This document shows positions 52,231 to 58,200 of a DNA stretch of 64,000 bases, in pieces. Location: positions 1 through 64,000 of IMG/VR virus record IMGVR_UViG_3300032213_002070; one strand, written 5' to 3'. The translations under genes and the position numbers were made by a program. Under the pieces are notes generated by a model. The model did no database searches, was not told the DNA's origin, and saw only the letters and a list, made by a program, of their open reading frames with translations. This DNA comes from a virus. Within the stretch, counting starts at the first letter, position 1; every line of letters begins with the position of its first letter.

Positions 52231-55200
52231 TTAAAAAGAACCCGCTATATCATCGTAAGAGTTACGTCCTAGTTGCGGTGAGCCATTACGCATAGTACCC
52301 GTAACTTGACCGTTTGTTAACATACCTGCGTTAGCCATAAAGGCATCTGCTTGTTCCCTATCACCATTAATAGATACGTCATAACCAACTCCTTGTTCTC
52401 CACCTGCTTGTGGAGTCATAGGTAATTGCATTGGTGATTGCGGCATTCTTTCATATGGATTACCACCAGGTAATAATGGTGGACCCGATATGCTTTCTTT
52501 AGTGTGATCTCTTTTTGAAATGTGAGCAAAGACTGCAAGCCCCGTTCCAATTGCAGCAGCGCCTATTATAGTACCTTTATTCCTCATTAAACCATCTGCT
52601 AATCCACCTAAGGATCCTCTTTCAGCCATTGGTTTACTTGTGTTAAATAATGCTTTAATAGAATCACCAAAACGAGTGTATTTACCACGAGCTACTCTAT
52701 TCAAATCTGCATAACTTGCCCTAGCTGCACCTGCAATTTCAGAATCAGACGATAAAGATTCTTCAAATACACTGCGGTGTTCTTCCACGAATCTATCAAA
52801 TACTTCATTGATTGACTCAATTTTTACTGGACCCTTTACAGGTTCTACGGTGTCTAACGCTGTTTTGATTGGCCCTAAAGCTTCTTCACTATTTAATTCA
52901 AATTGTGCGTTGTATCTATTTCTTATTTGATTTATTAAATTAATTCTTTTTTCAGCTTCTTCTATAGCTTCTGTTCCAGAGTAACTTTCACCTATTGAAG
53001 CTTGAAATCTTTTACGTATTGAATCTTCTGCTTGAACACGACGATCTCCCTTGAGGCTATTTAAAGTAATAAAATCTAATAAAAATTTATCATCTTTTAT
53101 TATAGTTTTATCTAAAGTCATTTTTGATAAAATTTGATCTACTAAAAGTGCATCTTCTTCCAAAAGATTTGGAGAACGAACTATCTTACCTGTTTCAAAA
53201 TTTGAAGCGGCTTCTGTATCAAACTTTAATAATTTACTTAAAAATTCGTGATCCATAAGATTACCATCTAAAGTAGATGATCCAGGATTTTTGGCTTTAT
53301 TTACATTATTGATAAATTCAACCATATTTTGAGTACTTTGTTCAAGACTATAAGTTTGATCTACAACCATTTGATTCATTGTTACTGAAGCTAATTGTTG
53401 GATTGTAACAGCTTCATCTCCAATGTTGATTAATAAATTACTTTCATTTTTTAAAATGAAATCTAATTGTTTACCCAAAAATGCTGTTGTTCTTTGTGTT
53501 TCATTTGGTATATCAACTCTTTCTGATATTTTCATTTGCTCAATTTCATATAACATTTTTTTCATCAATGAAACTGGACTAGCTCCTTCTGTATCAGCAG
53601 CTTCTTGAAAACCTCTTTGAACCGCTTTTCCAATTGTTGCTTGTGCTTCAGACATTTCCATATTTATTTTATCTGTTATTACTGATTGTAACTCTCCCCA
53701 ATTTTTAGTAGTTCGGGTTCTTGCTATATCTTCTCCTGTTGCATAGCCGTACTTACTTAATGTTTTACCCATCCAATCATCAAAACTAAAAGAACCATTT
53801 AAAGATTGTTCTTCCATTTTTCTTAAGAGAGAAGATTTTTCTCGTAATTCCGTTAATGTTGTATCACCTAAAGATCTTCCAATATCTGATCTTATTTTTC
53901 CAATCGCTTCAGATAATTCAGCTGTTGCTAAACTACTCTCATGCGATTTATATATATTAAATTGTTTTAATCTCATTTCAGATCTAAACGCTTGGGCAAT
54001 ATCTTGTGCTGCTTGCAATTGTTTTTCAACATTTATTACACCATACTTTGCTTGAGCTTTTTCGCCCATTCCAAGTAAGTCTATTAACTTTTCTCTTCCT
54101 GACAAAGCGGGTAGGCCATCTGAAGTTGCAAGTTTCCTTAATTCTTCTAATTCCTGAACCAGTTGGTTATATCCGCTTTCGTTTAATGTAACCTTACCAG
54201 AATCTGCTAATTCTTTCATTTTCATAATAGCTTCGGTATATGTATCTGTGATACTTGCTAACGCCATGTCGTAATCTGAAATAGGACTACCCTTTTTTCT
54301 AATGGTTGATAATTTGTAAAGAGTTGCTGTTCTATCTAAACCGACTAAGCTAACATCACCTTCACCGGCTATTCCAAGACCAAGTTGATAAGCCCTTATT
54401 TTAGCTAATGATCCAGCTACTTCACCTATATTTGTTCCACCAATGTTTTCTGCAGATACGTTGATAAAATCCATCAATCCTTCAGGATTTTCTGCTAACA
54501 TTTCATGAAATAACTCTTTCCTATTTGTAAAAATTGCATCTTCAAGTGCTTCACCCGTTAAACCTTTTAAACGTCCTGAATAACCTTTTGCGTTGATATG
54601 TTTATCTATAAACACTCTATAGCCTTCTTCATTTGGATTATGCATCGCGAATAAAGCTGTGTTAAGAGCTTGTTCAGCCACCTCTCTAGGCAAATCTCCT
54701 CTAGCGGAAACATAGCTGTTCAACATGTCTTGATAAGTTACACCTAAACCAACTTCTCCAAGACCAATGCCGGCGTCAATTGCATTTTCTGGGTTCCAAA
54801 CTAAAAATGTGCTATTTACTAATTCATTTGCAATCTTTACTAGATCTTCATTTGCCCCCTCTTTGTTTGCGTATTCCAATATTGATTTTGCTCCAGCTAT
54901 TCTTTGATCTTCTCCCGATGCCAACCAACCAAGTCTATTAATGTATTTTCCTAATCCACTTTCTGCTGTTATAGACCTAGTTTGCATTCGTGTATAATAC
55001 ATATTAAAAGCGTTTTTTGCTTCTAGACCAAGTTGATTTTCCAAACCTACACCACTGGTAAGTTGTTTTTGCGCTCTGTATGCATACTCCATCGGAGTAA
55101 GTTCTCTATCCGAAGCTTTACGAGATTTACGAACAGCTTCTTTAAAATCACTATAGGTCATATTGACATTTGGATGACCCCCTGCATATGCTCTTCCATA

Positions 55201-58200
55201 TATATCTTCGATTTTTTCCACATAAATATTATCACTTGGAAGAGTTACTTTTGATGACAATATCTGAGTTAATTGACTTTCTCTATATCCAGCGGCAAGT
55301 TCGGCATCGTTTGCTACGAAATTTTTTATTTCTTCTATAGACATAGTTAATGGACTAGATCCGGATCCCTTACTTGCTAGTCTTGCTACTGTTTCATTTA
55401 ACTTTGTAATGTCATTTAAGAAAATGCCTTCTACATTTGCATTTTCTGTTCCTAGAAAATCTCTGGCAAAATCAGCTGTACTTACGGCTTTTGCCCTATC
55501 ACCAAGTTTAAATTTTTCTTCTCCTCCGATATCAAATATTCTAAATATAGCGTTAGTTAATTCTTCTTGCGTAATGTTATCAGGCTTATACATATTTGCA
55601 GCTTTTTTTTGACCATGAGCTAAAGAGTTTATGTATCTAAATGTATTTATTTCTCTTTCTTCTAGTCCATCAATTGCATTTGGAACATCTAATAGTTCAG
55701 AAATTCCTGCAGATAATCTTCTAAATCTTTCACCGACAACTGTATCTGATCCAAACATTCTTTCAATAGTTTTATCATCTAAGTGCGGACTTAATAGTGC
55801 AAATTCTTGAGGTCCAGTTGGTTGGCGCCAAGCAAATGAAGCTAAGTGCCTAGCGCCTTGTGAGTCTTCTATAAATTTAAGATTGTTTATAAAGTGGTCG
55901 TCTAAGTCAAAACCACCACCAGATTTAAAGATACCAACGGTGTCCATAGCTGCAACGTCTGGTATTAGCATTTTCTCATCATCAAATCTATACTTAAACA
56001 AATTTAAATCATAAGTATTATCTCCGTACTTAGCTGTAATTTTTTTTCTAGCACTTACTTTTTCACTTCCTAAAATAGCCTGACTACCAGCGGTTGCTCT
56101 TCCCTCTGTATCTATTTGGCTTCTTGTGCTATAGGGCATGAATGCTTGGTGTATAGGGATTTTTTCTTCTATTACATTTCCGTTATATGGATTAATACCG
56201 GCGTATTTACTATAGGAACCTTTTTCTCTTACAACGGTTTTCATTGCATATCTAAGAGCTTGGTTTGCTAAATCTGGAATTTCATTTACCTTTATTCCAG
56301 ATGCCATTACCCTTTGAAATTCTATTGCTTGAGCTTTAAAGAAAGAAGCGGCTTCTCTACTTGCAAAACCCATTTGTTCCCATTCTTCAAGATTTATGCT
56401 AGCTTCACTTTCTATAGTTCTTCTTATGTTGCTACTTATTTTTCCATGAAGTCGTAAATCTTCTATTTCTTTTTTAAAATTATTAACATTTTGTTGGACT
56501 TGACTTGCTAACCCGCGACCATATTGATCTGGTAAATATTCATCCCTATGAAATATGGATCCTTGAATATCTGAGTAAACTATATCTGGAGTATCCCTTG
56601 CTGAGATATTATAAGTCATAGCTTTTCCGGCGTTAGGACCTAATGATTCTGATCCAGGAGCATTTATATGACCAAAAGATACTTCATTTTTATATAGTGT
56701 ATCTGGCATTGCAGCTGCGTATCCAAGTTTTCCTATTGCTTCTGCGCCCTGGTTATTTACATTAGAAACAACATCAGTTACACCTTTATATTCTGGACCA
56801 AGTAAAAATCTCATAGTCTGACCTTGAAGTGGTCTAATTCTAGGTGCAGCCCCTGATAAAAAATCACTTTTATTTGAAACCATTAAGTTTACTTGAGATT
56901 CCCATTCTTTTATATTTCCACTTAATAATAATTGTTCTTCTTTACCAGTAGTTGTTTTTAATTGATTCTTTGCCTGATTAATCATTCCTCTTAATTGTTC
57001 TGAATGAAATTTAAAAGCTAAATCATTTTGCATACTAGAACCATCGTATGCTTTTTCCAACTCATTTATAACACCTTTAAAACTTTCATACATATGCTTA
57101 GACTTATTAGAACCATCTGAATTTTCTAAATAACTATCTATTGTTTTAAGAAAAGATTTTATAGTTAATTCTTTTGGATTTTCTAAATTTGCTTTAATAG
57201 TTTCTTGAATAATTGAATTAAATTGCGTAAAGTGTTCATCTTGATTTAAACCAAATGCCTCTAGGGCATCTTTAAAGACTTGCTGTTGACCAACTGGAGT
57301 ATAATTAGTTATAGCTTTTATTGCGCTTCTTTCTCTCAGAATGCTTTTATTTTCCAATGAACTTGTTGCTGTAGCTAACATTGCATTTGTATAGCTTGTT
57401 TGCATGTCCGCCGCATTGATTAATGCTTCTTTTACTGGAGAATATTTTAATATGGCGTCTTCTAGAGTTTTTGGAGCTACAGATTTAAAATTATTATCCA
57501 TATTTTTTCCAATTTGTTCCAAGATATTATCTATATCTTCACCTTTAATTGTAAGATTTCTATCTCCTGTTATGTTTCTAGTTCTTTTTGGAATTTTTTG
57601 TAATAATCCGCCAACTCCAGCTTCATCTGTTTCTAAGATTTTGTTTAATTTATTTAAATCAAAAAAATCTGATCCAGTTGAGGTTAGGAGCATATTTGAT
57701 TCTTCTCCGGTTAAAAATTGATAATTACCCTTTTCATCTAAATGTCCAAACGCAAGAAGCGCCGTTCCTTCTTTACCGACATTAAGCACTCCGGGAGCAT
57801 CTATTGCACCTGTCTTCAACAACTCTGCTGCTGCTGCTGCCTCTTTAAAATTATTTGGATGAAGCATTCTTGCCATGCTGTTTATTGTATTTTCATCATT
57901 GTTAGAATAACCAAATCTTATTATGTGTAAATTTTTACCTCTTAACTTACTTAAAAGTGGATTATCTAAAATATATTTCTCTGCTTCTGGATTTACACTA
58001 TTAATATATTGATTAAAGTTACTGGCCATTTCTGATAGATAACCAAAATCCATATTATCTTCGGTGTATAATTTTCCCCTATCTACGGTGCCTTTAAAGA
58101 TATTTATGGTGACATCAGAACCATATTTTGCAGTTCCTTTTTTGGCAGCGTCGTAAGTTAAATACTCTTGGCCAGTTAATGTGTCTAGATAGGTATCAGC

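Follow-up and report, generated by a model that had tools for sequence, protein, structure and literature searches.

Gene and protein layout

The stretch of DNA analyzed here, called the window in the following, comprises positions 1-64,000 of the IMG/VR virus record IMGVR_UViG_3300032213_002070, and all coordinates refer to it unless they are marked as genome coordinates. The minus strand contains at 52231-58320 an open reading frame (ORF) for a protein of 2029 amino acids (aa), which had been proposed on the basis of motifs to be a virion-packaged single-subunit RNA polymerase (RNAP) with an atypical catalytic loop. Conserved residues and structure prediction make it probable, though by no means certain, that the first ~1200 residues of this protein form a very diverged, virion-delivered single-chain two-barrel polymerase with a rewritten DxDD loop.

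The AGAGGA ribosome-binding site of the gene stands directly before its ATG and just past the stop codon of the upstream 1855-aa ORF, and neither a CGG nor a recoding signal was found near the junction of these two genes. All motifs named in the original prediction were located at their positions when checked against the ORF (Table 1); a second copy of one of them, NAID, at aa 881-884 is not conserved. The protein had also been described as ending in a transmembrane (TM) helix. It does contain one TM-like segment near the C-terminus (aa 1916-1934, Kyte-Doolittle 1.66), but this is followed by another 95 residues. With the exception of this segment and a Pro/Gly-rich tail, the C-terminal ~800 residues are poorly conserved and helical.

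Family and conserved residues

Relatives of the 2029-aa protein were found both by a word-indexed search (27 relatives) and by an exhaustive profile search (157 cluster representatives). The family is widespread on large phage contigs, with 116 contigs in IMG/VR carrying it, and its members fall into two groups, namely close relatives of ~2000 aa that align over the full length and a larger set of 1500-1800 aa that has mainly aa 570-860 in common. An alignment of 124 diverse relatives with a mean column identity of 18% shows no exchange at D805, D807, D808, R832, P834, or E839, while at least 90% of the sequences keep K512, K544, E546, P682, R733, G802, and F804. A second alignment, covering the N-terminal halves of 91 long members, revealed complete conservation of K242, K245, R246, D426, and G427, next to very high conservation of R504 (98%), K512 (99%), K544 (98%), R733 (96%), and E739 (99%). 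Judged from these alignments, the conserved set, which comprises four Asp and one Glu along with numerous basic residues, is of the active-site type.

The idea of a polymerase had been made dependent on the conservation of FDLDD, RQP and the Lys among homologs. Since these residues are invariant or nearly so in both alignments, the idea survives in this respect. The proposed Q-x-R...K-G motif, likened to that of known two-barrel polymerases, holds for T502, R504, and K512, which are conserved, but not for Q501 and G513. The two motifs noted downstream of the loop, LGKYIN and NAID, fared better, as all close relatives and some of the distant ones have LGxY(I/V)NxL and PExAID.

Searches for relatives of known function yielded little. 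Neither Pfam nor PHROGs contained a match for the 2029-aa protein, and in Pfam no hydrolase, nuclease or 3D/RlpA family appeared even at E <= 1. PDB chain sequences searched with the single protein and with two family profiles gave chance hits only, and in tblastn searches of 50,697 phage records neither the 2029-aa protein nor a distant member had a match. Literature searches yielded no description of the family either.

The orthologue appears as two separate ORFs of 1123 and 898 aa in some relatives (ENA contig, L015:9316-9327). The 1123-aa ORF ends with ATG-CGG-AGT-TAA, and the +1 frame is open from the GGA of CGGA into the 898-aa ORF, which aligns to aa 1119-1998 of the 2029-aa protein. 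The split lies inside the conserved module, directly before LGKYVN. Such an in-frame CGG-A split within the conserved module would be compatible with +1 recoding at CGG-A and would link the putative enzyme to this phenomenon.

Table 1. Features of the 2029-aa gene and of its neighbors in the window.
Feature	Positions	Strand	Remarks
Upstream giant gene, 1855 aa	58323..63890	-	C-terminal part homologous to 0305phi8-36 virion protein gp145
Whole gene, 2029 aa	52231..58320	-	Own ribosome-binding site AGAGGA; ATG at 58320
Conserved N-terminal enzyme-like module, aa 1 to ~1200	54721..58320	-	Contains all invariant residues, LGxYxN and PExAID
Basic cluster K242-x-x-K245-R246...R254	57559..57597	-	99-100% conserved; KxxKR also in paralogue
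D426-G427	57040..57045	-	Invariant; candidate fourth acidic residue (cf. QDE-1 D709); outside the modeled part
Beta-hairpin QTMRFLLGPEYKGV, aa 501-514	56779..56820	-	T502 86%, R504 98%, K512 99%; candidate first-barrel product-binding hairpin
K544-x-E546	56683..56691	-	K544 98%, E546 88%; candidate second lysine of barrel B (cf. QDE-1 K767)
R733...T738-E739 strand	56104..56124	-	96%, 80%, 99% conserved; predicted early strand of Asp-bearing barrel
SGGGFDLDDHF, aa 800-810	55891-55923	-	
Acidic loop G802-G803-F804-D805-L806-D807-D808-(K/H)809	55894..55917	-	Three invariant Asp, DxDD spacing
WRQP, aa 831-834	55819-55830	-	
R832-Q-P834-T-G-P-Q-E839	55804..55827	-	R, P and E invariant; hairpin 24 residues past the Asp loop
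LGKYINRL, aa 1123-1130 (LGKYIN, aa 1123-1128, 54937-54954)	54931..54954	-	Kept in close and some distant relatives
PENAID, aa 1177-1182 (NAID, aa 1179-1182, 54775-54786)	54775..54792	-	Kept in close and some distant relatives
C-terminal extension, aa ~1201-2029	52234..54720	-	Poorly conserved; homologue of the 898-aa ORF that is separate in relatives
TM-like segment, aa 1916-1934	52519..52575	-	Followed by conserved SGPPLLPGGNPYE tail (Pro/Gly-rich)
Downstream giant gene, 3766 aa	38073..49373	-	Lysin-like repeats (phrog_20474); counterpart of 0305phi8-36 gp147
Baseplate wedge genes (phrog_6, phrog_120)	32706..34256	-	Mark the contractile-tail baseplate/tail module

Predicted fold

Two-barrel polymerases carry three Asp residues in one barrel, and one acidic and two basic residues in the other (PMC9508822; PMC7824862). 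A first model of aa 470-1000, built from 18 sequences only, was poor, with a predicted local distance difference test (pLDDT) value of 62.8, and structure searches with it returned helix-bundle noise. An AlphaFold2 model of aa 480-900 based on the 124-sequence alignment reached a pLDDT of 84.6 and a predicted template modeling score (pTM) of 0.78. Foldseek searches with this second model against the PDB yielded nothing at E <= 0.001, which argues against a common hydrolase or transferase fold. A shape search in the ESM Atlas gave TM-scores of at most 0.26, a search of BFVD returned three uncharacterised proteins of uncultured phages only, and a feature search in the ESM Atlas produced no usable match for the 2029-aa protein or for its compact paralogue described below.

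The sole extended PDB match of the model was QDE-1, at a weak score below the reliability level of the tool, while all other listed matches covered ~100 aligned residues or fewer, mostly a helical hairpin of ~40 residues. In QDE-1, the product is bound by Q736, R738, K743, and K767 of the first barrel, which also contains the Asp residue D709; the catalytic triad D1007, D1009, and D1011, to which D709 adds a fourth Asp, belongs to the second barrel (PMC9508822). The alignment extends from the Q736/K743 region to a point shortly behind D1007-1011 and thus begins, in both proteins, at the basic hairpin and ends shortly behind the Asp loop. Judging by end-point offsets of the alignment ranges only, K512 would come to lie near K743, K544 near K767, and D805-808 near D1007-1011. 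In the 2029-aa protein, R504, K512, and K544 precede the Asp loop by 260-300 residues, and the barrel with the loop is followed by helices, with LGxYxN and PExAID 320-375 residues downstream. Around the loop, the model predicts two strands, a helix, three further strands and a short helix, followed by the Asp loop and another strand. This order is that of an Asp-bearing barrel, in which the loop lies between a short helix and the last strand. As the score of the QDE-1 match is below the reliability level, the two-barrel fold class of the module is considered likely, not established.

These results also bear on the explanation that the protein is a tail-lumen or ejection protein with another metal-dependent enzyme, such as a nuclease, a phosphodiesterase acting on host nucleic acids, or a wall-degrading barrel of the MltA/RlpA "3D" type. 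Hydrolase domains are frequent in giant tail-lumen proteins, clustered Asp/Glu together with Arg/Lys would be compatible with nucleases, and double-psi barrels with conserved Asp are also known from lytic transglycosylases (Pfam 3D/MltA). The weakness of the QDE-1 match and the absence of polymerase profile matches speak for this explanation as well. Nevertheless, we regard it as unlikely, since no hydrolase, nuclease or 3D/RlpA family was matched in Pfam, the confident model retrieved no common hydrolase fold in Foldseek, and the two regions covered by the sole extended match follow each other as in a polymerase core. Furthermore, the set of conserved basic residues is large, and a lysin-like part is already present in the neighboring 3766-aa protein.

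A compact paralogue

A search with the family profile against five complete relatives (205-268 kb) found the tail-module gene. In four of the five, a second, weak match was obtained to a frame of 845-873 aa far from the tail genes (HMMER E down to 1e-6 per genome). The compact frames from four relatives (813-873 aa) all contain HGG(H/D)DxDD, followed ~25 residues later by R(S/N)PN..GE. The genome to which the window belongs encodes such a compact paralogue as well; it has 833 aa and lies outside the window on the plus strand (genome 141577-144078; L107:5578-8079), in a cluster of small plus-strand ORFs. Its loop reads GGCDQDD (aa 425-431) and is followed by IIAVRSPNGIGEYS. The paralogue family has more than 225 members at a sequence identity of at least 50%, all of them unannotated.

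The invariant residues of the paralogue are K109/K112/R113, D161-G162, K224, K247-x-E249, G425-G426-x-D428-x-D430-D431, R455-x-P457, and E462, and they occur in the same order as in the 2029-aa protein. The motifs of the compact form, KxxKR, DG, K, KxE, GGxDxDD and, after ~25 residues, RSPNGxGE, follow each other as do those of the large form. An hhalign comparison of the two families in the region of loop plus hairpin gave P values of 0.002-0.003. By analogy, the 833-aa paralogue would be the non-virion counterpart of the 2029-aa protein. A wall-degrading or a purely structural role would hardly be compatible with a giant tail-module form that occurs next to a compact free one; in particular, a paralogue within a cluster of small non-structural genes would be difficult to explain for a wall-degrading tail enzyme.

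One complete relative of 210 kb contains two compact paralogues, one of 849 aa with GGHDQDD (L103:483-3029) and one of 813 aa with GGDDLDD (L104:1322-3760), which are ~20% identical to each other. In a small-gene region of the genome under study (genome ~131650-134090, minus strand), a motif of ~24 nt, TG(A/G/T)CAA(G/A)AT(A/G)AATTTATATAAT, occurs in four copies within 2.4 kb. Its TGxCAA element is only ~10 nt away from TATAAT. This gap is too short for a standard sigma-70 promoter; the motif may be a phage-specific promoter.

Genomic context

The window represents an extended structural arm on the minus strand, in which baseplate wedge genes occur along with genes for virion proteins and a ribonucleotide reductase. 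In agreement with the proposed position of the gene among giant genes, its neighboring ORFs encode 1855 aa, 309 and 632 aa, and 3766 aa, and the same run of giant genes surrounds both close and distant relatives. The 309-aa and 632-aa ORFs between the 2029-aa and the 3766-aa genes (49407-52203, minus strand) lie in different frames and have ~30 nt in common. In the 1855-aa protein, the match to 0305phi8-36 gp145 and to its relatives from jumbo phages of Bacillus, Moorella and Acinetobacter is confined to the C-terminal ~800 residues, and the N-terminal 1000 residues matched nothing in the phage collection.

In the Bacillus jumbo myovirus 0305phi8-36 the gene order is tail chaperones, gp145, gp146 ("hypothetical tape measure"), gp147 (lysin), and baseplate, with gp145 being a virion protein proven by mass spectrometry. 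The 2029-aa gene occupies the gp146 slot as the second giant gene after the chaperones. From this gene position only, we infer that the 2029-aa protein is packaged into the virion. The original prediction had drawn an analogy to crAss-like phages, which does not fit the context, as the tail module found here is of the myovirus type and syntenic with that of 0305phi8-36. By analogy, a closer precedent is the tape-measure-fused RNAP of Thermus phage P23-45. Its gp96 is a tape measure of 5002 aa that begins with a clamp-less two-barrel RNAP with DFDGD at 779-783; this polymerase transcribes the pre-early genes and has a non-virion paralogue, gp64 (Chaban et al. 2024, PMC10770324).

The gp146 slot, annotated as tape measure in 0305phi8-36, could likewise point to a purely structural tail protein, i.e., a tape measure or tube plug, whose conserved residues would be needed not for catalysis but for folding, for metal-mediated assembly or for proteolytic processing. 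The long, poorly conserved helical C-terminal part with its hydrophobic segment would suit such a role. We nevertheless consider this explanation very improbable: three Asp, one Arg, one Pro and one Glu that are invariant in 124 sequences at 18% identity are typical of active sites, and the same residues are kept in the 833-aa paralogue, which has neither the tail context nor the extension.

The unusual loop and the weight of the evidence

In comparison with G-S-D-F-D-(I/V)-D-K of Crassvirales and G-V-D-F-D-G-D of gp96, the acidic positions of the loop are shifted. The local pattern G-H-K-M-I-I-P...GGFDLDD resembles A-V-V-V-N...GVDFDGD of gp96. The usual place of an R-x-P-T element is the end of a strand ~35 residues before the loop (FRNP in gp96), and in the family studied here the invariant RQP(T/S)G..E is located on an extra hairpin 24 residues past the loop. 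A permuted barrel, as considered in the original prediction, is not evident from the model, whose order of strands and helices fits the canonical second half of the barrel, with RQPTG on the extra hairpin afterwards. This hairpin may reflect a rearranged barrel, or it may be an addition that places the Arg similarly. A reading of the loop as a glycoside hydrolase family 18 (GH18)-like DxDxE was considered and rejected, because the position of the Glu is occupied by Lys/His.

A number of observations weigh against the assignment as a polymerase. The Asp residues are spaced DxDD (GGFDLDDK) instead of DxDxD, the R-x-P-T element follows the loop instead of preceding it, and the strand that would be expected to bear RxP (aa 758-765) contains none. 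The first-barrel part of the model has a lower confidence (pLDDT 63-80), and D426 lies outside of it. A bridge helix and a trigger loop were not identified in the region beyond the Asp barrel, which was modeled without confidence and for which no dedicated test was made. At the level of profiles, hhalign gave a probability of 0.3 against aa 1-1200 of P23-45 gp96 (the best, non-significant pairing aligning the two R-x-P strands), nothing against an alignment of crAss gp66 (7 phage records), and no similarity to the YonO-like gp99 of 0305phi8-36, and no profile comparison ties the family to QDE-1-like sequences. Pfam searches (RdRP, Rpb1/Rpb2 domains) and PDB sequence searches revealed no polymerase link either. 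Finally, the 2029-aa protein is without a homologue in 0305phi8-36; hhalign against gp145 and gp146 gave no signal from its family. Since published two-barrel families have little in common beyond the loop, similarity of profiles is a weak criterion in this case.

Overall, the proposal of a virion-module two-barrel polymerase with an atypical Asp loop is supported by the conserved residues, by QDE-1 as the sole extended structural match and by the compact paralogue, and it lacks a profile link. We retain it as the best explanation, with a DNA-dependent RNAP being the most likely type of polymerase.

Proposed function

In the mechanism that we propose, the first barrel would contribute R504, K512, and K544 as basic residues, perhaps together with the acidic D426, and the second barrel a rewritten metal-binding loop, GGFDLDD, with D805, D807, and D808 in place of DxDxD, while a family-specific hairpin past the loop would carry R832, P834, and E839. 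The extension of ~800 residues with one membrane-type segment, together with the position of the gene between the chaperones and gp145-like gene on one side and the lysin, hub and baseplate genes on the other, suggests an incorporation of the protein into the tail or virion. It could then be ejected on infection and transcribe the first phage genes, as does the tape-measure-fused polymerase of P23-45. The phage would thus probably inject its own transcription enzyme.

The two-barrel superfamily includes DNA polymerases (archaeal PolD) and RNA-dependent enzymes, and its member QDE-1, the best structural match, uses DNA as well as RNA templates. The module could accordingly be a two-barrel polymerase other than a transcriptase, e.g., a primase-like, DNA-synthesizing (cf. 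PolD) or RNA-templated (cf. QDE-1) enzyme that is delivered with the genome, and the unusual DxDD loop could accompany an altered chemistry. We judge this to be quite improbable, as the known virion-delivered members of the superfamily (P23-45 gp96, phi14:2 gp66) are all DNA-dependent RNAPs and a virion-module copy paired with a free one is what phage transcription systems show.

A more far-reaching interpretation, which we put forward tentatively and hold for plausible rather than probable, is that the family constitutes an undescribed deep clade of two-barrel enzymes. This clade would be characterized by GGxDxDD, an RxP(T/N)GxxE hairpin and possibly a rearranged barrel, and would occur in a large lineage of uncultured jumbo contractile-tailed phages in a giant tail-delivered and a compact free form of 830-870 aa. 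If this applies, the two forms together would free the phages from the host enzyme in both early and later transcription. Two-barrel polymerases are defined by a DxDxD loop, and an active DxDD enzyme with an Arg-Pro element behind the loop would show how far this ancient active site can be rewritten. Moreover, delivery of a polymerase by the tail route has been shown only for one Thermus siphovirus, and a case from a contractile-tailed jumbo phage would make this strategy a general one. The compact 833-aa paralogue is well conserved and tractable for structural and biochemical work.

Comparison with known polymerases

Another recognizable RNAP, whose absence would speak for the polymerase interpretation, was also searched for in the genomes themselves. 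The genome under study contains no match to gp99 of 0305phi8-36 or to Pfam RdRP (PF05183), and the five complete relatives contain no match to RdRP PF05183 or Rpb1 domain 2. A search of these five for T7-type RNAP was likewise without match; as its control was silent too, it is uninformative.

Gp99 (ABS83659; Iyer et al. 2021, PMC7824862) is a YonO-like phage single-chain two-barrel enzyme, and it is encoded by the very phage whose tail module is syntenic with the one described here. Unlike the family studied here, it is recognized by Pfam RdRP, and its gene is not part of the tail module of 0305phi8-36. Gp66 of Cellulophaga phage phi14:2 (PDB 6VR4) is a virion-packaged single-chain two-barrel polymerase in a protein of ~2000 aa beside giant virion proteins, a setting that resembles the one inferred for the 2029-aa protein from gene position. 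The loop context G-S-D-F-D-(I/V)-D-K of crAss-like phages is one register off G-G-F-D-L-D-D-K. In contrast to the contractile-tail module found here, crAss-like phages are podoviruses with cargo proteins, and their Asp spacing is canonical.

QDE-1 (PDB 7Y7P, 2J7N) shows the succession that is predicted for the 2029-aa protein as well, namely a basic hairpin, a second Lys ~24-32 residues further on, a helical connector and the Asp loop, and likewise four acidic residues if the candidate D426 is counted. It differs in its loop, which is DYDGD, and in being a dimeric eukaryotic silencing enzyme (Neurospora crassa) without any tail-protein context.

The differences from P23-45 concern the loop (canonical DFDGD with FRNP before it in gp96, GFDLDD with RQPT after it here) and the type of phage and protein, as P23-45 is a siphovirus with a 5002-aa tape measure that includes a metallopeptidase, whereas the protein described here belongs to a contractile-tailed jumbo phage, has 2029 aa and no peptidase, and its role as tape measure is putative. 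On the other hand, in both systems a giant tail-module protein starts with a polymerase-like module of ~1100-1200 residues and has the acidic loop near residue 800 (779 in gp96, 805 here) and membrane-type segments further on. The layout of the gp96 type, an N-terminal module combined with a TM-like segment, is thus found here as well, provided that the module is a polymerase. Like P23-45 with gp96 and gp64, the genome studied here encodes a second, compact paralogue elsewhere, and in both systems the sequences are unrecognizable to standard libraries.

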